DNA from: Laetmonice hystrix
Lineage: Eukaryota
Assembly (NCBI GenBank): GCA_965235115.1
Contig: OZ249436.1
Location: 31,808,001-31,872,000, forward strand
Direction of reading: 5' to 3'
DNA length: 64,000 nt
How positions within the stretch are numbered: the first letter of the stretch is position 1; each line of letters begins with the position of its first letter. Shown piece after piece: positions 1 through 38,574 of the stretch. The position numbers were made by a program, and so were the translations under genes. Under the pieces are notes generated by a model, which had not been told where the DNA came from, made no database searches, and saw only the letters and a list, made by a program, of their open reading frames with translations.

Positions 1-229
1 GACGATGACGGAGCCCCACTCGAGCGGGCGCTGTTACCAGTGTTGGCTTCAGCAAAATAATGGCCTCTCGTCCTTCATTCATTTGTCACTCGAGCAGGGT
101 TTTCACAGGGTTTTTTTTCGAGTATAACGCAACTTATGTTAAGCTTTCTTCTCCGCGTTCATGGGAGAACGCGGAGCCAGCCTCACGGTCACCCCTCCTT
201 GCTCCGGCTTGTCTCGGCACACTTCGCAG

Positions 230-242
230 TTGCCGAGTTGGG
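230..242 (+). CDS. DAZAP1: Candidate DAZAP1 5' exon end (..VAELG|K): 13-nt exon, or 3' end of a first exon with ATG at 136
   Basis: Pyrimidine tract + cgcag|TTGCCGAGTTGGG|gtgagt. The phase-2 end GG joins the first G of 4193 to give ELG-KVF, like DEIG-KLF in DAZAP1. The frame is also open from ATG 136. Confidence 0.55.
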
Positions 243-629
243 GTGAGTGTGACGGTCTTGTGACAGTGTGAGGCTGAGGTTCTTCAAGTTCATGGTCGTG
301 GCGTGTTATGTGGTATCTATATTGGTAACTCATAAGATGATACTATATGAGTAGTTTTGTTGTATTTATTGAGCGTATATATTTTAATAGACATGCTCCA
401 GGCCATATATCGCTGGCGCTGTTTGGGGAAAGGGGGGGGGGGAGGGGGGGACAAGACGATGGTTATGCTTATGGCAAATTATAAAGTCTGAAAGGCCATG
501 ATTATGAACCGGAATCATGATGATGATGAGGTGGAGCAGCCTGGAAAATATTCACTGTGTTGCAACTTGGGCAATAATGCTTCCTTGCCGCCCCCTTTTC
601 GCCCTGGTTGGTACCTATAGTATAGAGTA

Positions 630-753
630 CAGGGGCGGATCTAGGGTCTATATTCAGGGGGGGGGGGTCCTAGGGGGGTCCAGCATAAAAAGGGCAAATC
701 GAGGGGGGAGGGGTCCCTTGTAAAAACAAAAGGCATTTTGGTTATAAAAAATT
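630..753 (+). mobile_element. Truncated copy of the MITE at 39165-39342
   Basis: Shares caggggcggatctagggtctat..ccagcataaaaagggcaaat..ggcattttggttataaaaa with 39165 onward. Confidence 0.75.
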
Positions 754-2979
754 AAAATATAAGAAATTATTTAGAACCTGATGTTCACAAACATACCACA
801 AGTTTAAAGATTGATAACACAAGTTGAAGAGAGTATGAAATTTGGGGTAAGTTGCAGCAGGTTTTACCCTACTGCTAAAACGTGCTACATGTGGAAATTA
901 ATTTTATGACTGAGTCCTGGAAATTTCTCTCAAGTCCTTGAAAAATCCTTGAATAGTGCTTGAGAATTGAGGAGGAACAAGTGTATGAACCTACCAGCCT
1001 CAGTCTCTAAACTCATGAATGAGCCGACATCTGTTATTCTGTAGACTTTGTAGTGCTGCACTGGATTTAAAGGGGCATGACTGCCTCTTGGCACCATTTT
1101 TTTTTTCTCACAGAGCTTTGACCTCTGGATTACACTATTTAAACTAACACTGACGGTGACCTATACTTCCGTGAAATGACAAAAGGAAGCAAGTCCAAAA
1201 GTTCAAGTTTCGAGAAATGGACATTTATATAAAACAAGTGCTTACAGTGCAGTTGGATGGACATGCTTCCTTCTGTCATGTGACTGATAGCTTCATAGAA
1301 GGATGTTTAGCAGAAATACACCCATTGCAGTCCTCGACATTTTAAGCATTTTGATGTACTGGCCCACAGGGCCAGTAGAAAATGAAAGTTACTGGCCCGG
1401 GTAATTGGTCCACTGGCCCGGGTATGGGGGGTCCTTTTTCTGCGTGTCCTTGTAGCAGACGACAAGATCATCAGAGTACATGGCACAAAAAAAGTGAGCG
1501 TCCAGTCCAGTGAATCATAGCAGAAGACAGTCCCACATGCATACGGACGTAAAGTAGCAGCCTGAATTTTGAATGCACACGTTTGACATTACTACGACCT
1601 CAGTGAAAATGGACGGAGCAGAAAAGTACCTACTGATACTACCGCTAAAGATCGCGATTGTGAGAGTATTTGGTGAATATTTGGAGCATTTGAGGAGTAC
1701 AGTGTATTTGATCGTGAGAGAGATTTACGAAAGTTACTGGCCCAGTTGGGCCAGTGATTTACAAAAATTACTGGCCCGGACCATGGAAAGTGTATCTGGC
1801 CGTTTCTGGTGGTGTGGAAAGGTCATGATTGATTCAGGAATTCTATTCTAATCTAACTAAGCAGGGGTTTAAACAATTTTTGGGGAGTTGTAGTAAAGTA
1901 AAGGTCATTATTGCCATCTCTTCATGCTTCTCTGACTTAAAGCAAAGATTGTCCATTTGTCCATTTAATTAGGGGTTGCACATGTACTAAAAAAGGAGAA
2001 CTTATCATGAGGACTTATATTACCACATTCAAGAAAAGTCCCCTTGACAATTTTAGGCAATTTGGGTGACCTTCTCAGTATGAACCTTGGGGAGATCGTT
2101 CGAACTGATGAAAATTCCCCATTTTAACCACCAACAACTGAAGTTGGGTTTCTAATTTTCCCTCTGTCCCAATGTCCATGGACAGTTATTTCTCAGAGGT
2201 GTACGAGTTGTCTCAAGAGTATCAAACTTTATAATCAGGGAAAGTCTGAATATGATGCACTTCAGGCAGATTTTTTATGATCATTCAAAATGGACACTTG
2301 GGGGGCCATCTTAAATTTGAATGTACATGTACCAGTAACTCATTTGGAGAAGTTTTCCTGATAATTTAATAATATTGATTTCTTTCTAACTGAAAGAGAA
2401 GAGGTGAGTGTTTCCTGCAGGATTTCCCCTTTTAGATGGACTACGCTGCTGTGCCCTCAGTTCTTCATAATATTGCAAAATGGCTATTTTAGTATTTACT
2501 GTCAAAATAACCATTTTGCAACTGGTAATTCATCATGTATCTGCCGTTAATCCGTAATACAGACCCACGGCACAGGAAGGATTGAATTATTGAAAAAGAA
2601 GAGACTGAATTAGGCATCACTTTCTACTCGAAATGTGCTCAGAATGCACCCCAGACAACGCGAGGCCATTGAGAAATTATGGGGTCCCAGGACCCCATGT
2701 GTAATGGGGTCCCAGTTGAAAAAATGGGGCCCCAAAATAAACTGAACCAAACATTGTTATATGGTGGGTACAGTCTCTTTGAGAAAATCAATTTTCTGGG
2801 ACTGTGGGAGTGGTTTCACCAAATATTTAAGGGCAGGATTCCACTTTAGTTTAAAGTCACCCATTCCAAAAGTAGGCACGTGTTTCTGTCAAAGGTAGCG
2901 TTTTTGAGATTACCTGATCCTATTACAAATTCTTTTCAACTATGACGGTATACACAAGTATGCACCTTTACCCTTGCAA

Positions 2980-3225
2980 CCCTCCCCCCCCCCCCCCCCC
3001 CTGCAAGCTACCGGGACCTCCCCGCCGACCCTCGCCTCCTCCCCAATCCTGCCCAACTGCCGCCCACCCTGGTCTCCTCCCCCCCCCCCCCCTGCCGCTC
3101 GACTGCCGGGACATGCCCGCACGCCCTTGCCTCCTCCCCAATCCTGCCCGACTTCCAGGACATCCCCACCCAACGTTGCCTCCTCCCTGTCCTGCCGACT
3201 CCCAGGACAACCCCGCCACCCTGGC
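2980..3225. repeat. C-rich degenerate tandem repeat
   Basis: Recurring cctcctccccaatcctgccc units with poly-C tracts; explains the stacked spurious ORFs here. Confidence 0.7.
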
Positions 3226-4192
3226 TGCCACAACGGCCAGGCCAAGCAAAACGCCGTGGCGCTAACGAGGTCCATTCAATGCGTACATGGGACGCGCCAG
3301 CTTCTTCATTTTTGCGTCCCCGCAATTTCATTGCGTAAATTGATACGGGCGTCGTAAGCGCAAACCCGGAATATTCACTTAATTTTATTTTTTTTCTAGA
3401 TCCCCCCCTCTCAACTCCCTCACGCACCTACCTCCTTGTGCGTGCCTCCAGCATGGGGCTGAATGTTGCTACGCCAAAAAAATTGATAATGTTGGCAGGT
3501 CTGGTTTCGCCATATTTGCAAACCTTTAGGCCTAAGGATATGTACATGCTGCCGCATATCCAAAGCCAAAGATGGCTCTTGCAATAAGGGCCTTTATTTC
3601 TGTGTCCTATGTTATTCCCTCCAAGATGCCAGCAGCGCAATGTACCATATCATACCTTTTCCTTACTGTGGAACATGAAATATATGAAAATTGTTATCAA
3701 ACAAAATTACTTTAAAATGTCCAAATAAAAGAATATACACCTTTGTACCTAATAGTAATACGATGCTGGCAGAAAAGTACACAGGATTTTTAAATACACA
3801 AACATAGAATTGCACCTGGCTGTATGTCCAAATTGCCCTGCATTTCTTCAGAATTCGGACTTCAGGGTGTTTTATCAAAAGTTGCATGCCTTGCCTCTTG
3901 TTTGTGTGGTTTTTATTTTGTTTGTGTGAATCATACCCCCCAAAAAGCATTTCTCTGGCCATTTCTATAGTCTTTTAGTTACCCAAGAAATTTCACAGAC
4001 ACTGAATTATCTTAAAGAATTTAACCAGTGGTGTATCTGGACCTTCATGCTTGCAAGAAAATTGATTCATAATTTTATGCATAGATATATCTATTTAAAA
4101 TAACGATCAAACATTTTATTCCCAAATCTGTGAAAATTGATTTGATGCTGATTTCCTGCAGTTTTTATCATGTATTTTCTTTTTGTTGTTAG

Positions 4193-4233
4193 GAAAGTAT
4201 TCATTGGTGGACTCAGCTGGGAAACAACTACAG
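4193..4233 (+). CDS. DAZAP1: DAZAP1 RRM1 RNP2 exon, copy a (KVFIGGLSWETTT)
   Basis: ttgttag|G..ACAG|gtgggt, 41 nt, phase 2 to 1. Confidence 0.9.
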
Positions 4234-7200
4234 GTGGGTATCTTATACTGTGGAACTATGTCAAATATATTACATTTTGTGCTTGGCAGGAAAGTCTTTG
4301 TTGGTGGACTATGCTGGGAAACTACCAATGGTATGTGATGAAACGATGATGTGTTATCTTACTGTTTGCTGTTGCAAAAGTTTTAAATTTAAAGGAGTGC
4401 CGATGTTCAAGATGTTTCAAATACTTTTCATGCTCCTTTTAGTTTTTCACCCTGTTTAAGGTCATGATCAATTAAATGTTAGTTTGAACTGAAGTTACAA
4501 AAATATTACCTATTGCTGCTTTAAAAAGTTCAGTTTGTATGTTTAAATAAATGGCAGATCTATGCAGGTCATGATGAGTTGACCGTCTGGTCCGATTCGG
4601 TGATATTACTCTGGTAGTAGAGGGAGTCGAGGTTTTTTGTTATTTTGTATTGTATGCAGCCGTTTTCCTATACCAGGAAGTTGGCCCTGTTTATTTTGTT
4701 AGACCGTGCTTCCATAGACATAGCAGTAGATGGGGAAACATACACAAACAGTGTAACATTGGTCAGATGGGGAGTGCATGTATGTACATCGTGTGTATGA
4801 GGTGTTGAGAGGATGGAGAGTATGTGTATTGTCACCATTACATACACACACGTGTGTTGTGAAAGCGGGTGTTGGGGCAGGGAGAGCTGTCCAAGGTCAG
4901 ACTGTAACCACCAAGGCACGTGACCTTACAGAAATACTGTGGTCATTAGTCCTCCAATGACTGACTGTGGAGTCGCTGAACATAGATCTGTGATTTGCTG
5001 TGGAAGTAACCTGTGATGTTTTTTCTAGGGGGTGGAACAGTAGGAACCTGATGAAGTCTGATAATAGGCCCCTACGAAGCGTAGCTTTTATCTTCACACT
5101 CACATGTGCGCATGGCCGGGTGCAGACCAATTCCCCACACACTGGCAGTGGACCTCTGTCCTAACAGCCTATTTCCAAATCTCATTACCCATTATATTAC
5201 GTGGAGGTTACTGGGCACACTCTGACATTTATAAATAATGCCAAACTCGTGGCACGAATACGGCATGTTGTAGTGTAGTACAGCATGGAGCCATTGGAGG
5301 GACCGTAAAGTCTAGTAAGTCCAGACCGAATGCAAGCTCAGGTTCATCCATGGCCTTACTCCAGTGGATAGGTCGCATCCTTTAAACGTTAGGGCAATGA
5401 TGTACATTGTGGTCTGTGAGTGACGTTAGGGTAAGGGGATCCAGGGAGCAGGGCTTGCCGTCCGGCCGTCCCACTGACCCCACCGGATCTGGTGGGAAAG
5501 CCGATGCTGTCTGAGCGGATACTACAGCTTGTGCCCACCAGCCAGGCACTTCACATAGGGGGCCGTGTACTTCCTAGGTCCTGGTGAACATGGCCGGCCA
5601 TATCCTTGTCACTGACATTGACACTTGGCCCACAGACACTCACTTTGTAATCAATCGTATGCGTTATATATTCAAAATAGAAAGTTTATAATCGGCATGG
5701 TCCCTATTCAAAGTTACATTAGTTGGATGCTTTTATTTATCTTTATGTGGCACCGATAGAAACCGCTGGCATTGAGTATCGCGTAATGGTGGTGTAAAGT
5801 TTGTTCCCTGCTGATAGACCCATATAGTTGAGATATTTTACCAATTGAAGTTCACACAGGGCAAGATATGCCCCCAGCATGTGGTAGAGAGCATTTGATA
5901 AGGAGCCCAGACCCGCCTCCCCCATTGGCCCCACGCCCCCCTCCCCGCCCCTACCCCGCCCCCAGCTCCCACCCCCTGGTTCATGCATCAGTTCCTGGCA
6001 GGCCCATGTTGAGACATGCCACCCTTATACAGTGATACTTGCAGCAAACAGTCGGGTCAACTGTTGACTAGTGTTAGTCCCTCCTCCCCTTGTCACCCAC
6101 ATGTGGGTCAGATCAACACATACGGCTCTCCCTCAGCACTGATAGCGATACAATACAGAAACCGGTCACAGGGGTCGCATGCACACAATGCCCTCCCTTA
6201 ATTTGATCCATCCACCAGAAAAGCCCCGACTAATGTGGGTGTTCATTAAGCACCATGTGTCATTGCCAAGCCAGGTCCTGATATCAGGTGCTTCTCCCAC
6301 CCCACTTTGGAAACAAAGAATAGCACAATGGGTTCTCATGAAACAGAACACTTTTAGATGAAAAACCGCTCCCACGTGTATAATCGTACTGTTGACATGA
6401 GGAATTCCTGATACCATTGCAACTAACTTCATCTGGTTGCCATGACACTGAGGAGCAGTTGGTTTTTAAAAATATACTTTAGTAACTGCGTTATTTAACC
6501 TCATCTTTGTTTATACTTATTGATAATTATAACAATAGTAGTATATCATGGTATATGCCCTAGTCATGTAAATAGGGTACATTAGAATATCGTATACATA
6601 TGAACTTATAATGAAGTACCACTGATATACATCCATGCATATTTGTAGTATTATTAATTAGCAAAGTTTGAATTTCAGAGTATAGGCACATTACATTTGG
6701 CACACTTGAAAAATCGAAACTTTCCGTCTATGGAGAAACTAGAACTTACTTTTATTGATGTGAATTGTAATTTATGGTTATATTGAAATGTATTCTACTG
6801 ACCCTGAAACAGTAGTGTCTTTACTCTAGAGGCACACAAAATTAATGTCTTCCCCTGCTGGCCCCCACCATAGGTGTGCCTTACTTACCTTTTAAAAAGA
6901 GCATACAGTTTGGTTCAAACTGCATTTTATAATCAAACCTTTTCTATGGAGCTTTAAACCTTCCGATCGGCCTACCGTATTCACCAGGCCCATGTATAAT
7001 AATTGACGGACATACAGGTTCTTTCTCATGGTACAATATGGATCTTCCTGTATTTACAGTATTGGACCGCTTTCATAGCTTTCACAGTTACGCATCAGTA
7101 GACATAATTACATTTATGTTGATTATACTATAGCCCTACATCCATAAATTTTAAATCGGTCTGCAGTAATGAATTATGTCTTGTATGGCTAGGAGGTCCA

Positions 7201-10200
7201 TGCGAGTCCAGCTGGTGCTCTTGTTGTATGGCGACACTGAACATTTGGGTTCTAACAGTAACCTAGAAGAGACCATCGTTTACTAAATTCTGCTTTTGTA
7301 GAGTTAGTGACTTACTATAATAGTAACATATGTTATGCACTAAGTTAGAGCAGATTCCTGCATAGCCTAACTTTCATTGCACCAGTGTGGCAATTGCTGA
7401 TTACAGCAACGTGGCTGGTTCCCTTTGCTGGAACGTTGGTTTAGGAAGGGAACAGCTGGGGTTGATTTGTTACCAGAAGGATGTGTTCAGTTTGACATGC
7501 CGGTACCGGTACTTGTGGTTATGAGGACCTGTTCTGCTCTTTGACAAGATCCGTGTCCTCATGTCCTTGTCTATGTCCGGGGTATGCAGGAACTGGTGTT
7601 TGTTTGCATGTGTTTCTCTTCCCTTGAGTAAACCTTTCAAGGCATGTTCACACGATGTCCTGATATATATCTTTACTAAATTGAGAAAAATATGTTCCAC
7701 GGGTTTTATGTTAATGGGGTCAGGATTCATGCTAGTTAATGTAAAACTGGAAGAGGGATGGGATGTGACTGTCATGAAATTTGCAGTGTACCTATATCCT
7801 TGTAAATATATATTAAACGTATTTTAGGCTGTCGGTATCGTGTTCGTAGGTGGGGACTGCTGACAAAGTGTTAAAACAAAATTATTTTTACAAACGTCTA
7901 ACTCTTGAAGCTTCAGATAACTAATTACTGGTATAAGTCAGGCATTTCCTGTCATCCCTGGAAATTCTAAGGTAGTTCTCTTTTATACTGTCGTTTCAGC
8001 ACTTAGACTGATGCAGTTGACTGGATTCTGAGGAGATTAAAGAATTCTATTCCTACCGTTCGGGGCGCATCTGGTCAGGAATTGACAGTGCACACAACAT
8101 GTTATTTACATAGCATAAAGCAAATAGTACCCCGGTACATGTTTTGGTTTTGTGTGATTTTGCTTAATTTCAGGTAATGTTTTTTCAAAGAAGCTCAAGA
8201 CTGATCGACAGTGCCAGAGAAAGTATAATATAAAACGTGTTGTTTGTTTCTTGTTTCAGAATCAATGCTTCAATACTTCAGTCGGTATGGAGAGGTGATA
8301 GACTGTGTTGTGATGAAAAACCAGCAGACAGGAAAGTCACGAGGGTTTGGTTTTGTAAAGTACCGTGATCCAAGCTGTGTATCAACTGTACTTGCCTCTG
8401 GACCACACATCCTTGATGGCAGACAGGTAATGCTCCACACTTGAAGTTACTCAATAATGATGTTATGTGAATTGTAAAAGGGTCCTTGGTTGTTCAGTTC
8501 ACGTAGGATACTACCTCGATCTACTATCAAATGTGGTCTCTAGATTAGGTCTACCAGTAGAATATCAAGCTGGATGATAAATTACATTTAGAAATGATTA
8601 TAAATGAAATTTTAATTACCATCCCGAAGGGATTAGCACATAGAGGTGTCATGTGGGAGATAGACTAGGGATTGGGTGTCAATCACACAGGCCCCATATG
8701 CTGGTAGTAGATGAACGGGTGATTCAGAGCTACCAGACGGTGTCAGATAGCGGTAATTACTCCCCACATCATAGATACCGCCTGCTGAAAGTATTTTAAG
8801 ATAGAATTCATTTGATAAATACGCAGTGTATAACGGTAGAGTATTGTAGGGAAATCTTGAAACTACTACAGGTACAGCATTAGCTGATGTATTGTTTTCA
8901 TGGGCCAAGTCCAAATGATTGTCAGTAAATACTATAAAGTTCACAAATGTCAGCCTTTAATCTTCGATTAGTTGACTGCATACCATTTAATGAACCTTTT
9001 TATTAGCGCAACAAAAATAAAATGTGAACTTAGTGACTGTGTGAAATGACTTTTAAAATGGGCTGGCACACGTGCTCCTGGAGTCACATCAGTGTGGTGA
9101 TAGTGTGAATATGCACCGTCATAGATGCTGGTGTGGAAGTAATTATTTGGAAGTAATTTTTATGGCAAATGTAAATATAGCCGTGGACCTGCCCTGAGGG
9201 TTGTCTGTTCTGTTGACTGGCTCTTGCGTGCTTCATGCGGGCTCCCCCATGACAAACACCCACCCACCCCTGGCCCTCATAACTGTCATGGAAACTTCAG
9301 TCCATTCACAACTATGGGGCTGAAGTCACAGCACTCTGATGACTTAATACTTGGCAAATGCAGCTTTTGTACCAACTTGCCAACAAGGGATATGACCCAT
9401 TTAGCCCGCAATGGGTATGTCTGTATAGGCCTGCGCAATAAGTAACAGGGCTTCAGTAGATTGGTTATTGTTACGGGAGAGCAGGGTTATCAGCTCGACC
9501 CCGTCATGTGTTTCATTTTCAGATACAGTAGAAGCAGAAGTCTGAAGAATGTTCATTTTACGAGTAACCATATAAGTTTCCTTTGAAATTGGTTTTCGAG
9601 CCGTCAGGCATCACCCTTATCCTTATCAGAAACACGTCTATGCACATTTATACCTTTTTTTCTTCTATGTAATCCAAACTGAAAATTGAAACATTACCAA
9701 CAATTCTCCCTGTCCCCTTGTGTAATTGTCTGCGGCAAGATTATCGTACTGTGAATCAATGATGTTCAGAAGTAATAAGAAGATTATGGTACTGTGAATC
9801 AATGACGTTCAGAAGTAATAAGAAGATTATCGTACTGTGAATCAATGAAGTTCAGCAGTAACCCTGAGTCACCAAAGTTCGTTTCATCACACTAGTATGA
9901 ATATACAAGAAGTCTACAGAATGCTAACATGGGTCCTGTTACTATACTTCGTTTTAGTTCCAATGTTATCAAACAGATTTAGGTTTCTGGGACATGTCTG
10001 ATAGGATATAGTTGTATGGTACTCGTCGTATGGCCGTGCTCTGGCCTGGGACATTCACCAGCACCCTTCAATTACTTGTAACTGCAGTTACTCCTCTCTT
10101 CACTATAGCAAAACTTTCCATTGGCATTATTCGTGGAAAATATCGGTGGAAAATATTGGCTGATACATATCAATTAACAATTTAGTAAATTGAAATTTGG

Positions 10201-13200
10201 CTCAGGTTACGCGTTTTTATGTGAATTTGGCTCAGGTTATGTGTTTTTTCTAATAAGAGAAGATCTTGGGGCAGCCAAGCTAAACAGTGATGTGGGTTTA
10301 AACCTTATGAAACCAGGACGAACGTCAATTACAATATGGGCTGTGTTTATATGATATTGTATGGTTTCAGTTATACGTGCCTGCTCTTTTTCAGATTGAT
10401 CCAAAGGCATGTAATCCAAGGTGTCAAAATAAAGTAAGTGCTGTAAGTTAGCGACTACATTACTTCTGTTTTAGTATTTATTGAAGTTCACTTATACACA
10501 GCTTTGGTCACATTATCTGGTGACTTCAGATAATGTAGACAAAATGTGACACTTCTAATATTCTGTTTACTAAGTATTCCATTTGTCTTCCTCAGGGTAC
10601 AAGTAAAAGCCAAGACCAGAAGAATAGGAACAAAATCTTTTTGGGCGGTCTCCCATCTAATTGCACAGAGTCGCAGCTCATGGATGTGTTTGGTCAGTTT
10701 GGAAAGGTATGCAGCTTTGTAGCGCTTTTTCAGTGACTAGAGCTGGATAAACTAGAGCTGGATAACCAGCTGGAGCTGGTTCAATAAAGACAGATCAAGA
10801 GGTTTTAACTTTGCTAAGTGCCAGCAAATATACACATCACATATTGCAATGTTGGGCTGATCAGCATCCTCCGGAGGCATTATTTCCTTGTTCTGTTAAA
10901 CGGTTAATATATTAGACAATGCACCAATATTAGCCCATCTAATGTTGTTTTCACCCCTTTGACAATAGGTAAATGATATTACAATCATGTGGGACCAGGA
11001 GAAACAGAAACCAAGAGGTGAGTGTGTGCCATCTTTCTGGTTAGTTCTCAAACCCATCCCCAGTACAAGGGTGATGTGAACTGAAGTGCCCTGCCTGTAA
11101 CGCTAAGCCAACTCACAGAAAAGATCGTCAGATCTGGATGTGTAATGGTAGTGCCCCTTTCAAGTAACCATTGGAGTACATGCATCACTCCAGCTTCCGT
11201 GGCTGTCTAGATCACTTCTTTTTAGATAGACACCCAAATGTGTCACTTCCTTGCTGTAATCAACCAATCAGAATACTGGCGTGTAAACATCAATAGGCTC
11301 TGATAAGATAAGTCATGTGCGAATCTAGCCATAATGCAGCACCATAGTTTTATGGTTATTTGCAGTGGATTTATAATCTAAGTGCACTCGACTACTGTAG
11401 ATCTAGTAAGCTACTAATATCTGAAGACGGTAGTGGATGTTGGTGCTGACTGTTGTACTGTGTACAGTTAACTATAACAGTGCCCGCTGCAGCGGAGAGA
11501 CGGCACGACATACAACTGCCTTGTTGGGGCTCACAGTACTCTGCTTTTTAGAGTAAGCTGTCCAACGGTTGTTGCATAATAGGCACAAAGCCACCTCCAC
11601 CCTATGTGTGTCCAAAAGGTCAATCAATCTTATTCCTGTTGTCAAAGTTGTGTGTAACATATTACATAATGATTAATTGATGCCGTCATGTTTTAAGGAT
11701 CTTAGATATATACCTGTTTGTACAGCTTTGGACATTATAGTAATTATACTGTAAGTAGAAATCAGTTGTATCTAATAATTCTTAATTTTTTGTTTAATGT
11801 TAGCATGCAGTGATGTTTGAACAAAGAGCAACTGGAAAATACAAATATTTTAAATTATTTGTCATAAATTTATTTAGTGATTTGAAATCTATATGATGCC
11901 TGGCAGATCATTGAGCTGATAAGTTTTCCAAAGTTAAGATCCACCTTTTGATATTGTTACAAATAGCCTGCCCATTAATAAAAAAAAAACGTAATGCTGC
12001 CTCTGGTTTCCGTCATCCCATCTCCCCCCCCCCCCACCTCTCCCCTTCATCAACCAATACTGAATGAGAACAGCACTGTTGCCAGGTTTCATGTGGGTTT
12101 GATATTATGTATAATGTTTTATCCGTGAACCACTGTGGCACTGAACACCTCCCAACCCCCCTACCAACTCGGTATTGACCTGTCCAGCCCACTTATTGAC
12201 TCTGAGTGTTGTCCCATCGCCGTTGACATATTGATTAACTCAAAGTCCAGGTTAGTCTTATGATGGGAGCTTCGGTCAAGAACCAGCAGGAGGGGGCCCA
12301 CCAACCTCTAGTACATTTGTATGCTCGCCATAGTAAGTAAGGTAACAGGATTCAGCATAGGATATTGATTATTGATAGTGTTTGAAAAAGGTGAACTTAG
12401 GGGAGGCAAACGTTTCTTTTGATTCCTCATTTCATGAGATTGACATCCATGGCAAGTTTCTGACTTGAGGATTGACCTTGCTACCCAGAGTTGGCAGGAG
12501 ATGTTCCTCTTCTAAGTGACCACTTGATAATCTGATTCATATCGCTTGGTCTCAAACAGGTATAACTTGACCTACTTGGGGTGCAGTAAGTTACAAGTTA
12601 ATAGGCCTGAATCATACTTGATGAATTGTTTTTTCGACATGGTGTAGCCTCTTTCTCTCAGGATAGACATGAGTTGGCCAATTCAATCTACATAATCTTG
12701 ATAAAGCTAGACAAGGGGGCGGTTCCAGTATCATATGCCATATATTTAAATGGTACTTCTCAAAGTCAGTCTGACCACTGATAAATACTAGCATAATGAT
12801 CTTCATGTCCATTCTGCTGTAAAAACTTCATATGAAGTGTCAATATCATATCTGGTCCTCGTCATGCGATTACATTCTTGGCCTTAGGAGCAGGCTAAGC
12901 CAACTCCTGGCTATTGGCATGACGACATGGTAGCGATAAGCAGTACACACCCCCTGAAAACTGGAACATGTTTGTGCACTGTTATCTGTAGACTTTGATA
13001 TCTAAAATGGCCTTATCAGGAGTGAAACGGACTGGCCTAGTTTCTATTCGTATTTTAGTTTCTGTAGATATGAACAGGTGTTAAATCCATGCATTACGGG
13101 TACATGAAATCCCCTTGTATAGAAGCCCCTACTCTGGAGTGTACAAGGTCCCAGACCATCTTAAATCTGTAGTTTTTAACCATGATTTATGTTCGCCCAT

Positions 13201-16200
13201 CCTTGTTCTGTGCCACACGGGTTTCTGTCAAGCAGGTGGAAGGAAGTCTGTGTTGTCAAATGGCACTGCTTGTATTTGACCTTGTTGTAGTGTTTTCTTC
13301 CTTTTCTCTAGGTGTGCTCGTTGATCTGTAGTCTAAGAATGCCTGCCTGTGCTCGGCTAACTTCTTACCTCGAGCCACTGCCACTCGCTTCACCAAAGAC
13401 ATAATCAGCGTCACAATGTAGAAACCACGCACAACAGCATGTGGCCCACATCAAATTGTATGGACACTGTTGGTCAAGAGGACGAACAATATCTTTAATT
13501 TAAGAATGGTCTCGAATTAAATAGTCACTTTTTCTGTACCTGATTAGAGACCGTCTAGGTTTTAGATAGATCAGAAGGAATTGGGATCTGACATACTCTG
13601 GAAACCAGTAGAATTTTAAGGTTAAACTTGTCCCAAACAAATTACAGGTGTAAGATGATATAATCTATGTGATGGAACCAGAACTAGACACAGTGTAGTA
13701 AATGTAGGTAAAGTGCTCACTAAATAAACCAATCTTTAACTATGATTGTAAACACCTAGTTAACATTTTAAACCCACGTAAAGTGTTATAAGCAAAGATA
13801 CCTGCCATCCAAGTTTCATGTACATGTAATTGTTGGTGAAGAGGTGTCCTTCCGCACTAGTGCATCTGTTTCACATGCTTCCTGTGTCAAACTGGTATCT
13901 TGTGTTTGTGTCCGTCTAGATAAAATCATTCTAATACTTGTGTAGCAGACTGATAACCAGAATATTGGCTAATTGCTGTATTTTAAGCATGTGAATGTAA
14001 CATTTTCTTAAATATTTAACACACCCGTTATTCTAAATAGAAAATACTTTACAGTACAGTAGACATTGGATGACCACTGGCTGATTAGTTTTGTTCTCAT
14101 CTTTTCCGGATTGCAAACTTAGATGAGGGAGTGATGGTGTGGCTGTAAGTATGGCTAGACAAGGCCTTGGCTCAGCTGGCAGTGAAACTGTACATATACA
14201 TTACACACATACCTGCATGTTATCTTGGACCCACATCGGTGGTGACAAACATTAAGGGCTCAAGGTGTGTGCTCCACCACATCTGCCTCAGTTTCAAGTC
14301 AGCCACTTGTCCCCCCTACCCTGCTATTGAGGACAAAATTACTGGCACTAGACCGAAAATGCGTTTACACAATGTATTATGGCACTTTTTAAAGTCTACC
14401 GGGTAATACCCGTGTCGCACATCATACGGGGCAAGTTACTTATTGGCTAAGGCTCTTTTATTTCATAAGGGTTGGTTGTTGGAGGGGAAAGGATATTCTC
14501 AGGTCAGTGCAAGACAGTGCCGGGGAAGTCCTTGTGCAATAAGACTGCAAACATTGACTAAGTCTACTTTGAAATTGCTGATTAAGGCGGCGTCTGGCAC
14601 CTTCACCGGTAAATTATCGACCAGTGCCAATGTTAATCCTTTGTGTATATAAACAGTCTATTAGCACTCTGGCCTTCTTATTCCTTTAGGATCAAGTAAG
14701 GTAAATTTTGAGCACTGCGAGTCAAAACTTGTCTGCCAAATTGCAGACGTGCCAAGTGTAGAAAATGTGCAACGCCTCGGATGTAATTTTTATCTGTCAC
14801 GTCACCTTTTCGTCAGCTGGCCATCTTTATCTTTCTAAACCATTATTATTAGAATATCTTCAGCCCCCGTATTTCTGATTTACGACGAAGTTTAAGCCTG
14901 GTTTACGTTTGGTGTTTAGACCAGTTTTTTCGCTTTCTGTCAGCTGGGGTCGGGCGGGGAGCTGAGATTCATGATCGCGTAGGGGGCAGATCCTGCACTT
15001 GTGTCCTCCTCTGCATGGCTTAGTGTTCCATCTAGCGGCAACATGTGTTGTGGTGTTGTGACGTGCTGTGGCGTTGGTGATGCGACGTGTTGCCGTGACG
15101 ACAGTAAGAGGTGGAGTCGAGCCCTGAGAATGTGCACCATCCATGTAGCCCTACTACAGCTCCTTCTTTTGGTTGCTATGGCAATTAGGCTTTGGGTTTT
15201 TGTCCTACGAGGACGACGAGAGCGTCGAGCGAGTTTGCCTACAACATTTTGTCCAGGTTGCGGGCAAAAAGGTTGAGTGGTTTTGCCTTCTAACACTTCG
15301 GGTTCTCTCTATGTCATGGCAAGACTGAACTAAAACAACACATGTCCCATGAGTATTTGTTTCCGTTTGTTTTCATACTTCTAGTAGTCTTGTTGAGAAG
15401 TTCTATAATATTAAGATTTGTTCAAACACTGCTATAAGTTAACCCGTTTTCCCCCAACTACACCCTGGTATTGTCTTCCTGTCGGTAATTGACTGTTCAC
15501 GGAGTTTCTAAGGAGAAAGGGTTGCTTTATGTCACCTTGCCCTGGCATAGCGAGAACTTTATACACCCACCTGTCCAAGAGAAGTTGGAAGTGAAACTAC
15601 CATGTGCTAATTACTTCACACTTCTCTTGATAGTGGGATGTGAAATCTCAACATAACAAGTTTGCTTTGGTCAAAAGAAAGTGTAGCTTGTCTCAAATTA
15701 TTTCCTGGTAGATATTCGTCAAAAGGTGCCTGAGCTTGTTACTACTACACAGGAATATTTAACGCAAAATTTGTTTGATTGCCTTCTGTTCAAAGTGTAT
15801 TCCCGAATTGGTCATTAGTGCCAAAAACTTTGATACAAGTTTTTTTTAACATCACTGTAATATGTTGAGTTACATTTCCCAATCATTAAATAATGTATTG
15901 ATAAGATAAAAAGGAAAAATTTGCAAAGTTGTATTCAAAGCATGACGTCATCGTTGACTGATTGGATGGGATTATACCGGTTTGAGGAAATCCTGTGTAG
16001 TTGTAACCAGCAAGTCCTTTTGGTTCGTTATGAGGAGGATAGGGTGTGATAACGTTGATGAAGTGCAACACTGAAGTGGCTTATAAGTAGCTCTGAATAG
16101 ATTAAAAAACAAACAAAAATGGACCAGTATGTACATGTATGGTAGCATTTAAGAATACCCCAGTCTATAATAATCTAGCCTTTGAACCATAGGCATTAAG

Positions 16201-19200
16201 CTCAGTATAATTAGATGGAATGCAAGTACAGTATTGATTAGAATCATCAGCAGTGTACTAATATTAGAGCTGAAGAACATGACAGACAGACAATTTGAGC
16301 ATACTAACATGACAAGAGAATTAGTAGATATTAGTACGTATAGTAATGTTTTTGAAAGAAAAGAACTTTAAGTGATATTTAAGTACACTGTGAAATACAT
16401 CATGTCACCTATAAATTGCCTAGAGACTGTATTGAGGTGTAGGGCTGTGTGATGTTTCGTAACAAGAGCGTCAATGGCAGGAACCCAAATATTGACCTTA
16501 GTGAACTGTACCGAGACACTGCTCAAACACAGAAATTAAGAAGGGCCTCCATTTGCCCATTCTGCACATCATTTTCTCAAACCGGCATTTGCCAACAGCT
16601 AATGGAGTTCATAGCGTGCAAGTTATAGCCTGTTCAAAGTATAGCCAGTTCAGATAAGAAAAAAATTCCATTTGAGGATTGTTGATCATTATTCAGTAAG
16701 TGTTAGCATATTAGCAGTATTTCTAGGCTCTCAATCAATCATATACGGAGTTCGCTTGCCCTTTTCTGACTCTCTTGTTGATGGAACATTGTATGTTTAT
16801 AGGAATATTCTGTGTGCATGGGTCTCTGGTTAAGAAAGACTTTAGCTGATAAATTCCAGAATTGGATAGACATTTCTTGACCTATTGATAAGAAAAATGT
16901 ATATCTTAAGACCAATTTGAATCACGTTTGCATGAACCCCTCCAGAATTTGTAAGCCTGATTTTTTTTTAAATAATAAATTTGGTGATGGAAAACAAAAA
17001 GGCCTATGGAAGCTGACTACAAACGTGAAGACAATATCAAGGGAGATAGGTCTATTGTTTAAACGTTTTTGACCCATGCAACAGAGTGCGCCTATATGTG
17101 TTACCCTATGTTGTTGTGTCGTGTAGGTTATGGTAGTATCGGCTGGTTGTAAAAAAACGCCCAATATTGCAGGTTGAATGCAAACGAGCTGAACCACGAG
17201 AGATAAAGGCCATGGAGCTGGGCCTGCCGACCGGGATGTTGGCTGGCGGGGCGCTCGGCATGCATGGGATGGCGCTCGGGGCAGGCATCATGTCCCACCC
17301 GTATCAGTCACTAGCAGCCCAACAGAGCCTCGCCGCACAAGGTAGGGCCACATACCTATAGCCAGTCAGGCTTGTTCAGGGCGGTAGGTTGTAGTCAATT
17401 CTTCATGAAATATTTAAAAAGGAAAGGTAATGTCACAGTGTACTACGTGATGGGAGTCCGTATGTCTTTTTGCAGCACCGTTTGTGATGATCTAGTTTAT
17501 TTTAAACTCGTTATTTCCTGTCCTGTTCAAAGTGTATCTTGAATACAATTTGCATTTGATCTTGTGTTAAGGACAAGGATCCTGGCTGTGACTTCTGTTA
17601 TTCGATAAATGGAGAAAGGAATCGTGTACCACTAATAAAATTGATGGAGTTGTCTTTCTGTTATTTTTTGAGTTTGTCAGGCTTCTTAGCATTTTTTTTA
17701 CTCTCTTTGGCTTAAATTTTATTTTGTCTGTTTTTTACAATGCTGGCTTTAAGTTTAACCCATGCATGCATATGTCCACGTATCTCTGATGTAGAAGAAG
17801 AGAATTTAGGTAAAAAGCACTTTTTTTTTGCCAGCCAGTAATTTTTTTTAGAAAAGAGGGAAAATAAAGACCTTAAGCTAGATTTAGATGTTTTAGTGGT
17901 TTCTTCTAGTTTTCTATAATAATTCAGAATTGCTGGCTGCAAATCGGTAATATTTTGGCAGACAAATGTTATATAATGGTGTATCAGGCATTGTAATGTG
18001 ACTTCTGTATGGTTAATTTAGTGCGAGTCGGGGATGCGTGGCGTGAGTATTGTGGGAGTGTCTTATTTTGTTGTCTGATTTGTTAACTTGCAGGCATAGC
18101 GCTGTTACCTGCAAGCCAACATCTAATACCACTAACCATACCAGGTATATGGTAACATCCACTTAATTCTATTCTTACTCCATTGCCGGTATTCGAGCCC
18201 TCGCTTATTGTGAGGACTGCACCGTACTCAATGTTGGGCTGGACAGTGATCAGTAAACCAGGCTGAACCCATCCTTGCATAAAAAGGCCTATCTTGCAGA
18301 GGTGTTGGGCCATTTAAACTAAAGGCACAGTTCTGGTCATTTGCTATGCTTTATAACATATTTTATTTAGCTCTTTTTATCTTATCCTTTTTATCTTCAA
18401 TTATTTGCAATCTTATTTATTTGCTGAGAATCATCCAGTATCCGGCAAAGATTTGGCTGTATGGTATACTTAAAAAGACGACTTGTTGGCACGACTGTTA
18501 AAGATTATTAATTGACAGAGATTTCATGTTATAGCCATGTAAGAATGGGGCCAGCTTAGAGGTTTAATTGTGTTAAGAAAGGTGATATTATTATATACAA
18601 ATATGTAGTGAAGTATGCCGAGTTAACCAAGTCGACATTTATTATGTGCATGACCATAGACAATCGGTAAGATTACTGTGGATATTAGAAAGAAAAATGG
18701 GGCTTCCGTACACAATAGTGAAGTGTTTATGTAACGTTCTATAATCTTGTACCAGTAATATTGCTTTGAGATTTGCCAGTATGGATGAAGCCTAAATGAC
18801 CAAATCCTGCTTAAAGAGTTGCCAAATCAAAGATTGAAAAGCAGTACCGATTAGTAGTGATTTGATGCAGTACTACCGAGAAGGTAGTTTTAATACCAGA
18901 TAGATATTTGAGTATGAGTATACACAACAACCCGGTAGTTCTGTCACAAGGCGTTTTCTTACCCGGAACGCTATGTCGGGGTAGAGTTGACTCTAGCGGT
19001 TAATTGTGGACTTTGCCCTCCTGCCGGTTTGTTTATGGGGGACACCACTAAAATAGAGCAGCTGATCCAGTATGGCAAGGTCATCTCATTGGCGCCACCT
19101 GGTGGATGCCATGTAAACACAGACAGATAACTTGGGTTTTCACTTCCTCAGACTTACAGCCTCTTTAAACTTGTTTATAGGAAATAATTTTTTCTAGGTT

Positions 19201-22200: not shown

Positions 22201-23786
22201 GAACAGGGAAAATGCGCCTAACACTGAAATGCCTCCTTTGATAATACCACTAACAAACTTTCTTTCATTTCCCAGATTTGCTGAAAAACAAAATTGACCT
22301 GAGGATGGGTCTCAGCCATGACATTAAAGGTGTGGGCTCATGCAGTCATTTTTGGTGTGTGTCTGTTGACACTCATGTCAGGCTATAGTCATTGAGCAGT
22401 TAGCCCTCTTCTGAATGTCGGGCCGATTTCACAGGCCCACATGAAAAAGACTTCAATATGTATCCATCCTGCTAAAATATTCAGCTTTAATTCATTCAGC
22501 CTGGCATAGGTGTGCATAGCATCTAGGTACCCGGTGGATATACATATAGTCATGGCCAGCATGAATTTAATCCCTATAATGCGTAAGTTTATCCGCTCTA
22601 CTAAGTCTGGAACAAACTGTCACTTGCACAAACAACTAAGTCTGATAAGGCCTGGTTCTTCTAGCAATGAATACCACATTCCTCATTTGCTCAGTCATCA
22701 GTTCTTTTGACCTTTTATGCAATATTCATATGTAGGGTATTGCAGGTAATTCAGTGATCCCGTGATCTAATGGACAGATTTGGCTGTCTTGACAGAGATG
22801 GCATAGCGTAGGGGTTGGAGGTTGGGGTATAGGTAGTGTTGCCTGCATGAAAGGGAAGGGAGGGGGGGTTAAGCATCCTGCCTACTGATGTGGACCTAAG
22901 CTTCGACCACGACACAGAGACGGTGTCTTCAAGACCCCCCCCCCCCCCCTCCGTATTATGCCGTTTTAGACGCTAAGAGGCTAAGTGATTTGATGCAGTA
23001 CTCTGTGTTTGTGGAAGGTGACAGCATTTTCTGAAAATACTCCGTTAAGTTAAGATAGGGACGTTGAGGCCGGGAATAGCAGTGAGCCCGATTTGTCAGC
23101 AGTATGTAATGGTTATGTAATAGGTATCCTAGGCAGTTACCATCAGGAGGCGAGCAGCTATGGGCCCACACGTGGCTATGCCCAGGAAGGGGCGGTGCAC
23201 AGTACCATCCAGACACCGTACACAGCCAGTGTCACGTATGCCGCTGCTCCTGGTCTCGCTTTACAGCAAGGTGGGTCTCTATCCATGGCCAGGTCCACAT
23301 TCTCTCAGCTTGTCCTTCACCCTTCCTCACACCCTCCTTTTCTGGTTGTTGTTGTTGTTGTTTTGTTGACGTTGTTGTTTTTGCCTAGCATATTTCTTAA
23401 GGTATGTATGAGAAAACTTTAGGAGTGTGCTTGCAATAAAAGACTGCTGCTATTTGTGAATCATAGTTCTAAACGTGTAAGGCATCCCTACTACTCTTGA
23501 TATTTCAGAGTTTTACGTGCAAGAGACATGAAATGTAAGCTTTGGCTTTGAGGGAAGATGCTTGTAAAATTTTGAATTAGTAAGAGTATTGATGAGTGTG
23601 TAACACCTGTATGTTGCAGCGCCTTACATGAGCGCCTTGGGTAATGGTTACGGAGGACCAATCCCGCTTCCCTTTGCCTATGGCGGTCACGGCGACGCCA
23701 CGTCGGCGGCCGCCTACAATGCAGCCCTACAGGCTGCTGCCCGTAGTACCTCAGTAGCTCAGGGTTTCCATCCATATCGCAGATGA
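4193..23786 (+). CDS. DAZAP1: DAZ-associated protein 1 / Hrp48-like hnRNP, two RRMs plus low-complexity tail (multi-exon span; true start codon uncertain or upstream)
   Basis: Phase-consistent GT-AG exons: 4193-4233 (or 4290-4330), 8260-8426, 10395-10433, 10596-10706, 10969-11017, 15189-15271, 17173-17341, 18094-18144, 19589-19717/19747, 20692-20763, 21750-21869, 23133-23270, 23620-23786. They give KVFIGGLSW..RGFGFVKY..IDPK..KIFLGGLP..RGFGFLSY..VECKRAEPR and the C-terminus QGFHPYRR*, the DAZAP1 PY-NLS-type end. Confidence 0.93.
4290..4330 (+). CDS. DAZAP1: DAZAP1 RRM1 RNP2 exon, copy b (KVFVGGLCWETTN)
   Basis: ttggcag|G..AATG|gtatgt, 41 nt, same phases as copy a, 56-nt spacer. Confidence 0.85.
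8260..8426 (+). CDS. DAZAP1: DAZAP1 exon, RRM1 core with RNP1
   Basis: ESMLQYFSRYGEVIDCVVMK..SRGFGFVKYRDPSCV..LDGRQ, ag/gt boundaries. Confidence 0.95.
9737..9862. repeat. 43-bp tandem repeat, about 3 copies (intronic)
   Basis: aagattatcgtactgtgaatcaatga.gttcagaagtaataag repeated. Confidence 0.9.
10395..10433 (+). CDS. DAZAP1: DAZAP1 exon (IDPKACNPRCQNK)
   Basis: tttcag|..|gtaagt, phase 0-0, end of RRM1. Confidence 0.9.
10596..10706 (+). CDS. DAZAP1: DAZAP1 exon, RRM2 RNP2
   Basis: GTSKSQDQKNRNKIFLGGLPSNCTESQLMDVFGQFGK, ag/gt boundaries. Confidence 0.93.
10969..11017 (+). CDS. DAZAP1: DAZAP1 exon (VNDITIMWDQEKQKPR)
   Basis: caatag|..|gtgagt, 49 nt, phase 0 to 1. Confidence 0.92.
15189..15271 (+). 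CDS. DAZAP1: DAZAP1 exon, RRM2 RNP1
   Basis: GFGFLSYEDDESVERVCLQHFVQVAGKK, 83 nt, phase 1 to 0. Confidence 0.92.
17173..17341 (+). CDS. DAZAP1: DAZAP1 exon, end of RRM2 plus Gly/Ala/Met-rich region
   Basis: VECKRAEPREIK.., ttgcag|..|gtaggg. Confidence 0.92.
18094..18144 (+). CDS. DAZAP1: DAZAP1 probable cassette exon (GIALLPASQHLIPLTIP)
   Basis: ttgcag|..CCAG|gtatat, 51 nt, symmetric phase 1, open frame. Confidence 0.6.
19589..19747 (+). CDS. DAZAP1: DAZAP1 tail exon with two in-frame donors (after 19717 and 19747)
   Basis: GMSGVGSAGLYAST..; donors gtgagc and gtgact are both phase 1. Confidence 0.75.
20692..20763 (+). CDS. DAZAP1: DAZAP1 tail exon (GQSGLSLESYPPVSQHESQSPQVT)
   Basis: ttctag|..|gtcagt, 72 nt, symmetric phase 1. 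Confidence 0.7.
21750..21869 (+). CDS. DAZAP1: DAZAP1 tail exon (GYISASPPAST..)
   Basis: atacag|..|gtaagc, 120 nt, symmetric phase 1. Confidence 0.8.
   Translation, partial: AIYQQVPQQAQRQDLRAQKKHRSRRRQDPICSTLVKHHS
23133..23270 (+). CDS. DAZAP1: DAZAP1 tail exon (GSYHQEASSYGPTRGY..)
   Basis: cctag|..CAAG|gtgggt, 138 nt; in-frame alternative acceptor 9 nt upstream at 23124. Confidence 0.85.
23620..23786 (+). CDS. DAZAP1: DAZAP1 last coding exon ending QGFHPYRR*
   Basis: ttgcag|, open to TGA 23784-23786; C-terminal motif matches DAZAP1. Confidence 0.92.
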
Positions 23787-34157: not shown

Positions 34158-34340
34158 GGAACAAGTGTAGGAACCCTCGTAGCAACTATATTTTAACAAT
34201 ACATGTATTGTAGTGAACATTTTTAAACTGAAAAGTTATACGTGTACATGTATTGTTATAATTGATGCTAATATTTTGGTTTCATTATTTAAGTTCCAGG
34301 TCAAGGTTCAAACTTCAGAAGGAATGATCTCTCTCTGACC

Positions 34341-35204
34341 ATGATGCCTGATAAGGAACAAGTGAAGAATCTCCTTGTTGAAACAGTGACACTTCTATGT
34401 AAGAACAGCCTTGGATACAAAGACCACCTACGTGTTGAGGGGCTCTTAGGTGTGGCAATTGATGACAAGGATGTCTTTTTTCTTCATATCAGTGAAAACT
34501 TTCTAAATACACCTGCAGTTTCACAGACTTCAGATCCTTCAACAAGCACAGAAACAGTAAAAGACCAGAATATAGGCTCTGATTCAAATTATCAAGATCA
34601 TGAGGAGCATTTTATGCAAAAATCCAAAAATCCTGTTGACTCTGTTAAGTTAAAAGATGAACCCACAGATTCAGACGATGATTTGGTCATGATTCCAAGT
34701 CCTGAACTTCGCCCTCCAGACATGGTGGCCCAACGTGCAAGCAGAATAGCTGGCCAGCGTCGACCCCCCTCAAGCCCACGACCTAAGTCTCCAATACGTT
34801 CTGCAAGTTATGCTAACAGAAACGATATATCGGTGTACCGAAACAGCTTTGCTGAGACAACTGAGTTGGGGCATGATATGCAATATGTTATACAAAGTGA
34901 TTCCGATGAGCCACCAGAAAAACGTTTGGCTTTAGAAAGAAATGAAACTACCTTTGATGTGACAAGACAAGAGAGGTATTTGGACAGTGCGGCCAAAGAT
35001 ACAGAAAACAGCTCAGAAAGAGATGCTAGGTACCAACAATCTGGATGGACAGATGTACCACCAGGTGGCAGCACGACAATCAAGGTTGAGATGCCTGAAG
35101 GGAATTCACAGTATGAGAGTGAAGAACAAGGACTGACACATTCAACGCCCTATGTATGGACGGTCGCACCCACGAGTGAAGAGGGTGACCAACAGACCAG
35201 GGAG
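34341..35204 (+). CDS. Gene 2 shared exon: N-terminal domain (EQVKNLLVETVTLLCKNSL..VEGLLGVAIDDKDVFFLHISE) plus acidic/disordered linker
   Basis: ATG in acc-ATG context after acceptors at 34293/34299; 288 codons to GAG|gtaaga (phase 0); VKLKDEP and IKVE SUMO-like motifs. Confidence 0.85.
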
Positions 35205-35561
35205 GTAAGACTCAGGGCCCAGGCCCATCCTTTCCCTGACCAGTCCTTTACACACTTAGTTTACCATTCCAGGACTCCAGCTGGGTTCTTAAAGTTCACA
35301 CCATCTTATATAAAAATTATCACTTCAAGATCATATGCATAATATGCAATTTTTGCTTAGATTTTCTTGATAGAAATGATTAATATAGAAAGAAGGTGGA
35401 ATGTACTGTTCAATTACAGCAGGGATCCTGGATTGAATGTCACCTTTTTGTAAGTAGGGTCACATAAAACAAATTGCATTGTTATCATTCATGACTTACC
35501 TTTTACATCTTCAGTGGGGAGAATTTGTTTTTAAAAATAATTTGTTGGCGTTTTGGAATAG

Positions 35562-36990: not shown

Positions 36991-38516
36991 CAGCCAGATA
37001 GTCCTTTTTTCCTCCAGGTGAATAGGGCCAATACAGTGCAGGATGCTATCTGGTATAAAGCCCGTCCAATTGGAGTGAATGCGTTGAACTCATTAAGCCC
37101 TAGTTGGTTTACAAGTTATGTGATGTTTATGATTTGTCCTTACTATAACAATGTATCACGAAAATAAACTGTGGCGTTTCACAAAAGAATATGTCTGCAT
37201 TGCGGTTGTTTGATATATAAATACCGGGGTACTTCTGAAGTTCGTCTGTCACTTTTTGCAATATAAATGTTCGATTTGTACTAGCGAAAATAGATTTCGA
37301 ATATTGTCAGCATTAATTTATTCTTGGAAAAATCGCGGATATATTTGTTTATGGAATTCTGGAACTATATTCATTGCGGCCTGTTACCAAGGGTGTGCTC
37401 GCTTCCTTCGCTTCAAGGAATTGCACGAGAATGCAAGGAATTAATTGAGAAGGCCAGAAATTTCAGTGTGACGGTCAGGAATTCCACTGCGAACTGAAGG
37501 AAAGGAATTTGACTGTGAAGCAATGTAATTGTCTGTGAAGACAAGGAATTTCACTATGAAGCGACGTAATTGTCTGTGAAGCCAAGGAATTTCACTGAGA
37601 AACAGACATTTTCTGTTAGTACAGCAGTTTCTACATCTGTCAGTACAGCAGTTTGTACATCTGGGCCACCGTAGTACAGTGCCACAGGCTTGCTACCTTC
37701 GTGTATCAATGGTATCTAAGTCAGTGCACCTCCTGGAAAACTTTCTTGTGGCAAGCAGATGCGAAAAACTGATACAACCCTATATGGCAAGCAGACGTGA
37801 AAAAACGATACAGTGGCCTCTAAAAAATAGGCTGAGCATATGTGAAAACTGATAGGCCTACAGTGGGCAACTGAGGTAGCAAGCCTTTCTAGGGCCCTCT
37901 GACAGCCAGATAAACGAACGCGGGTCAAAGGTGGATGAATGTGACGGTCGACAAACGTCGACAAACTCTAACATATTAGTAGCTGTATGACAAAAAGCAA
38001 TACATTGATATTGTCATGGAATTTCCTTGTATTTTCATGAAGCATAATTAAGCACAGAGGGAAGTCAAAATAGAACACAAAACCACCAGGGTACCAGTGA
38101 TACAAGTCTGTGAAGTTTGAAGAGGCCCTGTCGAGTCAAAAAGAGACTCCTCAAAAGAGAGCTACTCCTGCTTGTACTCATTGTTTCACACGATTTTTTT
38201 AAGAAAAAAAACTTGACGATTTCGAAAGATTTGAGCCTTCACCTTAGTTTAGCATGGAGAGAATGAAGTGATGACTTCCTTTATCATCACTTCCAGGAAT
38301 TTATTGCATTAGCATTTCTAAGTATATTTCCTAAATATTGACTTTTAAGATTATGGAATTGTGAGAGCGTTATAAGCTAAGTTTTAAGCGTATTTTAAGC
38401 TACCAAGTTTGACAGAGCTATATTAACATAAAACATGCTGTTGTCAAAGAAGTAGACATAGATTATAAAAAAAAATCTATTTTGTTTTACAATTCGTCTT
38501 TTTATTTTTTTTTTAG

Positions 38517-38574
38517 ATTATTCAGCATCAGACTGGAGGTATACCACATACGGATCATATCAGTCTCAAGACAG
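38517..38574 (+). CDS. Gene 2 linker exon (IIQHQTGGIPHTDHISLKT), phase 0 to 1
   Basis: Long poly-T tract + ag, donor ACAG|gtagtg; supplies the phase needed for exon 41060. Confidence 0.65.

Follow-up and report, generated by a model that had tools for sequence, protein, structure and literature searches.

The U2AF1 gene contains tandem exons Ab and 3 of 67 nt, which are described as encoding peptides with seven residue differences, as conserved across vertebrates, and as proven at the RNA level (PMC5224494). In the account of the OGDH exons 4a and 4b, a steric threshold of about 50 nt from donor to branch point is quoted for vertebrates (PMC7969005). RNA contacts have been described for RRM1 of Hrp48, where the residue that shifts most when RNA binds is W16 of the β1-α1 loop, and K8, F10, and W16 contact RNA in a simulated complex (bioRxiv 10.1101/2024.03.26.586676).

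The DNA analysed here is a 64,000-nt stretch of the Laetmonice hystrix genome, called the window. It contains a DAZAP1/Hrb27C gene with two tandem copies, 2a and 2b, of the short exon that encodes RNP2 of RRM1. The reading that seems more probable than its rivals taken together is that exon 2 was tandem-duplicated long ago, and that the copies have been kept as mutually exclusive coding exons by a steric block with nonsense-mediated decay (NMD) as back-up.

The DAZAP1/Hrb27C gene in the window

The features of the gene were as follows (window positions unless stated otherwise):

G000:C1:31807588-31807634, 367 nt upstream of the window: candidate coding exon 1, 47 nt, ending in phase 2
1..4192, plus strand: 3' part of intron 1, the whole intron being 4558 nt
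4193..4233, plus strand: exon 2a, 41 nt, KVFIGGLSWETTT, β-1/RNP2 and β1-α1 loop of RRM1
4234..4289, plus strand: spacer between 2a and 2b, 56 nt, GT...AG, no internal AG
4290..4330, plus strand: exon 2b, 41 nt, KVFVGGLCWETTN
8260..8426, plus strand: exon 3, 167 nt, remainder of RRM1 with RNP1 (PF00076)
10395..10433, plus strand: exon 4, 39 nt
10596..10706, plus strand: exon 5, 111 nt, linker and RNP2 of RRM2, single copy
10969..11017, plus strand: exon 6, 49 nt
15189..15271, plus strand: exon 7, 83 nt, RNP1 of RRM2
17173..17341, plus strand: exon 8, end of RRM2 and start of the low-complexity tail, putative donor
23111..23275, plus strand: probable later exon for the C-terminal tail, approximate limits, from tblastn matches of the homologues P0118, P0004, and P0081

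Exons 2a to 8 were recovered by a purpose-written spliced aligner with two annelid queries, and exons 2a to 7 with a third. The candidate exon 1 was the sole return of a phase- and motif-filtered scan of the 40 kb upstream and of window positions 1-4190. A second twin exon candidate, at 10783-10812, was ruled out; it has neither splice sites nor an equal-length partner.

A search of solved structures with exon 3 gave human DAZAP1 as the best match (2dh8, E 6e-23), followed by yeast 2cjk and, in third place, Drosophila Hrp48 (9en7). The top named protein matches, among the best 120 of 380, were annelid Hrb27C/DAZAP1. The best matches were thus to DAZAP1/Hrb27C rather than to Musashi or hnRNP A/B/D; Musashi-like and squid-like genes are located elsewhere in the genome. 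In a tree of 23 rows, the protein was placed in a group (support 98/98) with Capitella, Lamellibrachia, Helobdella, and five further rows; Owenia was outside, and the nearest neighbour was P0118. The gene encodes two tandem RRMs followed by a low-complexity tail, which is partly resolved. The 41-nt RNP2 exon followed by an unbroken exon with the rest of RRM1 is common to the loci L026, L060, L059, L078, L037, and L090, unlike the Musashi-like gene, in which the exon for the rest of RRM1 is split. On sequence grounds, the gene is a DAZAP1/Hrb27C orthologue that groups with the annelid orthologues.

An RNP2 pattern had 11 matches in the genome (control 10), two of which were the 2a/2b pair. No retrocopy recording a spliced junction was found in a genome search with exon 3, in which 24 candidates were scored; identity above 62% was seen only at the DAZAP1 locus. 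Two RRM genes in the same genome (L006, G000:C5:20242193; L008, G000:C20:5022664), which we take to be RBM24/38-like, share the same RNP2-RNP1 peptide, and one of them is apparently intronless.

Other features were seen in the window. The plus-strand region 34293-48417 has a 349-codon frame without a Pfam match, then several separate frames with C2H2 zinc fingers or DUF3504 at their ends (36409-36990, 40996-42012, 44441-44917, 46836-47204, and 48016-48417). This layout resembles a constant head joined to alternative last exons. At 52331-53252 (plus strand), two near-identical 91-codon frames lie about 646 nt apart, probably as a tandem repeat. At 60018-62717 (plus strand), there is a single, apparently intronless open frame of 899 codons with an HSF-type DNA-binding domain (PF00447).

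Reading frames, constraint, and residue differences of the two exons

The first-pass annotation had described two 41-nt paralogous exons of identical phase with a 56-nt spacer, and both coordinates and lengths were reproduced (2a at 4193-4233, 2b at 4290-4330). Each exon is preceded by AG and followed by GT. A third copy of exon 2 was absent from the window, where the best other ungapped match was 24/41. A two-exon IUPAC pattern had a single match in the window and none in 100 shuffles. Three contigs, one from each of three runs (all of one sample, possibly the source sample and not independent), span 3756-4337 with 6 to 8 differences from the window; in the X1 contig, all six differences lie outside both exons. 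Because these sample contigs span both exons, the pair is real DNA and no assembly artefact as far as the contigs tell, and the second haplotype also carries an intact pair. At window position 4286, in the 2b acceptor, the contigs of all three runs have A in place of G, with the same acceptor score.

With a single exon, 2a or 2b, the frame stays open through both RRMs. Inclusion of both leads to a TGA at 8296-8298 in exon 3, just as the first-pass annotation had stated, 128 nt before the end of that exon. Skipping of both leads to a TGA at 8366-8368, 58 nt ahead of the exon 3 end, and a transcript that retains the spacer meets a stop at the exon 3 junction. At least five exon junctions lie downstream of the stops of double inclusion and double skipping, and the stop after spacer retention is upstream of several junctions. 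Under the 50-55-nt rule, a stop that far upstream of a junction makes a transcript a target of NMD. Since their stops lie upstream of several junctions, the double, skipped, and spacer-retained forms are all predicted NMD targets.

Both double inclusion and spacer retention end in premature stops, and these might be the main purpose of 2b: as a poison element, its inclusion with 2a, or retention of the spacer, would send transcripts to NMD and make the protein self-limiting. Such NMD-exon feedback is described as common in RNA-binding-protein genes (PMC6547761). A poison element needs no reading frame, yet the differences between the copies are biased to synonymous sites of the RRM frame, and the short spacer would hamper double inclusion; this role as the main one is therefore very unlikely. 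Double inclusion could also run through another donor, 4 nt downstream of that of 2a; at 45 + 41 nt, it would leave the frame open and give a protein with a doubled β-1 segment. This donor ranks at the 2nd percentile, its use would leave an intron of 52 nt, and the doubled segment would be an extra strand, for which the RRM fold has no room. Such a product is hardly to be expected at all.

The copies are identical at 32 of 41 nt. The first-pass annotation had spoken of many synonymous differences; these number 5 of 13 codons, beside three non-synonymous differences (I/V, S/C, and T/N). Third positions differ at 6 of 13 sites, the first two codon positions at 3 of 26 (Fisher p 0.024), and dN/dS between the copies is 0.10 (13 codons). 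In simulations with 2b neutral since the duplication, at least five synonymous codon differences together with at most two changed residues occurred in no more than 1.3% of runs, whichever divergence was set, and in 0.6% when intact splice dinucleotides were also required; with both copies constrained, the pattern occurred in up to 49% of runs (all joint frequencies under a simple mutation model over 13 codons, not formal p-values). Exon 2b has no indel and no stop. Splice sites were scored against a matrix trained on 140 introns from the same genome. The acceptor and donor of 2a are both at the 83rd percentile, and those of 2b are in the normal range, at the 61st and 22nd percentiles, respectively.

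The flanks of 2a and 2b showed no homology (P 0.41 and 0.78), and an apparent similarity of the spacer to the intron after 2b was attributed to chance (P 0.41). The two copies are no nearer to each other than to the orthologous exons of nine other loci (26-33/41). The duplication of exon 2 is judged to be old on both counts: flank alignment is lost, and the mutual similarity of the copies does not exceed that to these orthologous exons.

The residues at the three variable sites were surveyed in 450 proteins from DAZAP1 searches, a redundant and insect-heavy set; two of the searches were covered to the best 120 of 380 and the best 120 of 1596 matches. The whole motif was present in 326 of them; the other 124 were fragments or lacked it. 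The first site is Val in 261 and Ile in 65 homologues, the second is Ser in all 326 and never Cys, and the third is Gln in 285, Asn in 2 (one of them P0118), and Thr in none. One residue per copy was never seen in the family: Thr in 2a and Cys in 2b. At the two sites apart from its Cys, 2b is nearer to the family consensus than 2a, and it keeps the consensus Val. Among 117 genomic exons of the same type (at least 117 loci), the Ser/Cys site is Ser in 68, Asn in 47, His in 2, and Cys in 0.

The first-pass annotation had proposed that exon choice swaps residues on and beside the RNP2 strand, including Ser to Cys. The Ser to Cys change is indeed unusual, as the survey showed; the functional weight implied for the swap is too high, as the Lys, Phe, and Trp at the Hrp48 RNA contacts (K8, F10, and W16) are identical in 2a and 2b, and both Ile and Val occur in the family. 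The I/V site of RRMs faces the core, and the S/C site adjoins the RNA-stacking Trp. The S/C difference is the only change with a plausible effect on binding. The overall effect on the protein is probably small, because 2a and 2b do not differ in the RNA-contacting residues, and the unusual residues are limited to Cys in 2b and Thr in 2a.

This Cys is one base from the Ser codon of 2a, and it could be a first sign of decay. Exon 2b might then be a relic, once functional and now silent or nearly so. Its weaker donor and the absence of the pair from all other organisms examined (see below) would fit such a relic. Neutrality since the duplication is nevertheless improbable on the simulations above, and 2b is free of indels and stops and intact on the second haplotype. 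A relic is considered unlikely, although a copy that died only recently would pass all of the constraint tests. Exon 2b looks constrained rather than dead, and is probably functional. Because its splice sites are stronger, 2a is probably the major or default exon; 2b would probably be the minor one, perhaps a tissue- or stage-restricted form.

The spacer and the proposed means of exclusion

Myosin genes of the same genome served as the yardstick for intron length (16 regions, 200 kb, two homologues aligned to each). They gave 277 distinct intron calls, of which 140 were kept because both queries agreed or both flanks scored at least 15. The kept introns had a minimum of 96 nt and a median of 316 nt, with none below 96 nt. 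The 137 dropped calls include eight below 90 nt (31, 44, 50, 64, 73, 75, 77, and 80 nt), each based on a single query and with a weak flank; that of 77 nt was narrowly below the cut. As a control, kept introns were shortened in silico; the method found 129 of 134 at a length of 56 nt and 133 of 134 at 44 nt, which shows that it can detect short introns. In a myosin gene (L174, G000:C1:61138273-61138380 and 61137740-61137835), the same myosin-head positions (about 117-152) were matched by two neighbouring stretches, possible twin exons.

The 56-nt spacer is shorter than all 140 kept introns. These come from a single gene family, whose length floor is not necessarily a mechanical limit. All adenines of the spacer, excluding that of the AG, lie 7-41 nt from the 2a donor. 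As candidate branch points they fall below the threshold of about 50 nt, which is a vertebrate value and may not be that of this worm. As to docking and selector pairings of competing RNA structures, no stable structure emerged locally: the fold of 4140-4400 was no better than that of shuffles (z -1.15).

The pair could also be exclusive in appearance only. Both exons would be alternative and the spacer spliceable, with double-inclusion transcripts removed by NMD, as in U2AF1. The exon length is no multiple of three, and double inclusion puts a stop 128 nt ahead of the exon 3 end. The donor of the spacer is strong and its acceptor normal, and adenines lie at a distance of 16-27 nt from that acceptor. 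The median intron of Capitella is given as 57 nt (PMC7854359), so a length of 56 nt is not unspliceable in annelids as such. Against this, the spacer is far below the 140 measured introns and has stayed short while the other introns of the gene are 162-4558 nt; the spacer of a squid-like paralogue, described next, is even shorter. Exclusion through NMD alone is regarded as improbable.

The exon 3 search of the genome also found twin 128-nt RNP1 exons in RRM1 of a squid-like hnRNP A/B-D gene (G000:C1:2760397-2760270 and 2760225-2760098, minus strand; L130, L004, and L005), the label squid-like being given by sequence likeness. The twins are identical at 84 of 128 nt, with 19 synonymous versus 12 non-synonymous codon differences, and their 44-nt spacer has a CTAAC motif. 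Like the DAZAP1 pair, they are equal-length exons of RRM1, not a multiple of three, with a very short spacer and a synonymous bias. Unlike it, they double the next exon of the domain, and the protein change is larger (12 residues). Five comparable metagenome loci each had a single RNP1 exon. The squid-like duplication is interpreted as independent of that of DAZAP1 exon 2. Two further hnRNP A/B-D-like genes are intronless and open, with frames of 318 and 404 codons (L002/L139, G000:C18:12863787; L003/L136, G000:C7:15305422, respectively). The 404-codon frame has three RRM-like repeats. Both genes are probably retrogenes, and their CTLKT motif resembles the first squid-like twin exon.

The steric reading is strengthened by these two independent twin pairs in RRM1, whose spacers are both below the measured floor. 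Under the favoured explanation, steric exclusion backed by NMD, the 56-nt spacer would not, in this genome, have room for U1 at the 2a donor together with U2 at the 2b branch point. Exon 1 would be joined to just one of 2a and 2b, which is joined in turn to exon 3. Any transcript that has both exons, neither of them, or the retained spacer would carry a premature stop and be removed by NMD. The two proteins would differ at I/V in RNP2, at S/C before the RNA-stacking Trp, and at T/N at the start of helix 1. They would probably recognise the same motif and differ modestly in affinity or stability. A bolder and unlikely idea is that, in this worm lineage, two hnRNP A/B-D-type regulators, DAZAP1 and the squid-like one, independently made RRM1 two-state through sterically locked twin exons; the family-unique 2b Cys beside the RNA-stacking Trp would make RNA binding of the 2b isoform sensitive to oxidation or thiol modification, and so form a splice-selected redox switch on a translational regulator.

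Occurrence of the pair and relation to known systems

The tandem two-exon pattern (spacer 45-105 nt) had no match in the metagenome contigs. The single-exon pattern was found at at least 117 loci; flanks were wide for 80 and measured about 300 nt on each side for 37, and no tandem copy was seen among the loci listed; many of them are of fungal type or of Musashi/squid type by likeness. Ten loci were chosen as DAZAP1-like by sequence, and six of them, annelid-type loci, span the whole of intron 2 and exon 3, with exon 3 identical to that of the window at 75-87%. None of the six has a second copy of exon 2; one of them, L026, spans exons 1-3. Isoform sets, covered through 59 of 61 members of ten mollusc and Owenia clusters and 121 of 566 members of ten mollusc and arthropod clusters, showed no second RNP2 form in molluscs. 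The isoforms listed for oyster, mussel, clam, cuttlefish, and Owenia have a single RNP2 form per cluster. Two arthropod clusters that pool several species show one-residue RNP2 differences. Short homologues were mostly exon-3 fragments.

The first-pass annotation had suggested looking for both exons in the DAZAP1 loci of other spiralians, and the pair was found neither in the six distant annelid-type loci nor in the mollusc isoform sets; the arthropod isoform sets lacked it too. The pair looks lineage-restricted against these comparison loci, which are all distant. No report of a DAZAP1, Hrb27C, or squid exon pair was found in the literature searched, although genome-wide exon lists in supplements could hold one. 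Conservation, the usual support for an exon pair, is lacking in this comparison, because there is no second copy in 6/6 annelid-type loci and no Cys form among the 326 homologues or the at least 117 exons. The mutually exclusive splicing proposed in the first-pass annotation thus gains from the anatomy (exons not a multiple of three, stops with both or neither, the signature of purifying selection, and a spacer below the intron floor), and loses from the absence of the pair in every other organism examined. Mutually exclusive use is well supported by the anatomy.

If both exons are used, the gene would have an isoform switch within the RNA-binding surface of a conserved splicing and translation regulator, of a kind found neither in the other animals examined nor in the literature searched. 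The pair would then be a natural test of the shortest donor-to-branch-point distance for an annelid spliceosome, and of the role of the near-invariant Ser before the stacking Trp in DAZAP1/Musashi-type RRMs. The surprise is limited, since the mechanism is textbook and the predicted protein difference small.

The worm gene resembles the DAZAP1/Hrp48 family (2dh8 and 9en7) in its two RRMs, the RNP2 exon, the 167-nt exon 3 of orthologous loci, and the same Lys, Phe, and Trp. All other DAZAP1/Hrp48 loci and isoform sets examined have a single RNP2 exon and Ser before the Trp, whereas the worm gene has two RNP2 exons and a Cys in 2b. Like U2AF1 Ab/3 as described (PMC5224494), the DAZAP1 pair consists of tandem, equal-length exons, not a multiple of three, over RNP2 of an RRM-type domain, with few residue differences; both lie in genes of RNA-processing factors, and both or neither exon leads to stops and NMD, which is predicted here. 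The U2AF1 exons lie in the UHM that binds U2AF65, whereas the DAZAP1 pair lies in a canonical RNA-binding RRM (PMC5224494). The DAZAP1 exons are also shorter (41 nt), with three differences and a 56-nt spacer, and come from one genome, where they are known from DNA alone. In OGDH 4a/4b (PMC7969005), the branch point is under about 50 nt from the upstream donor; the candidate adenines of the DAZAP1 pair, at 41 nt or less, would fall in the same range. OGDH has mapped, distant branch points in a longer intron, whereas the whole intron is short here and the branch points are candidates (PMC7969005). On its anatomy, the DAZAP1 pair fits the class of duplicated mutually exclusive exons. By analogy, it probably works like U2AF1 Ab/3, and probably also like the sterically locked OGDH 4a/4b.
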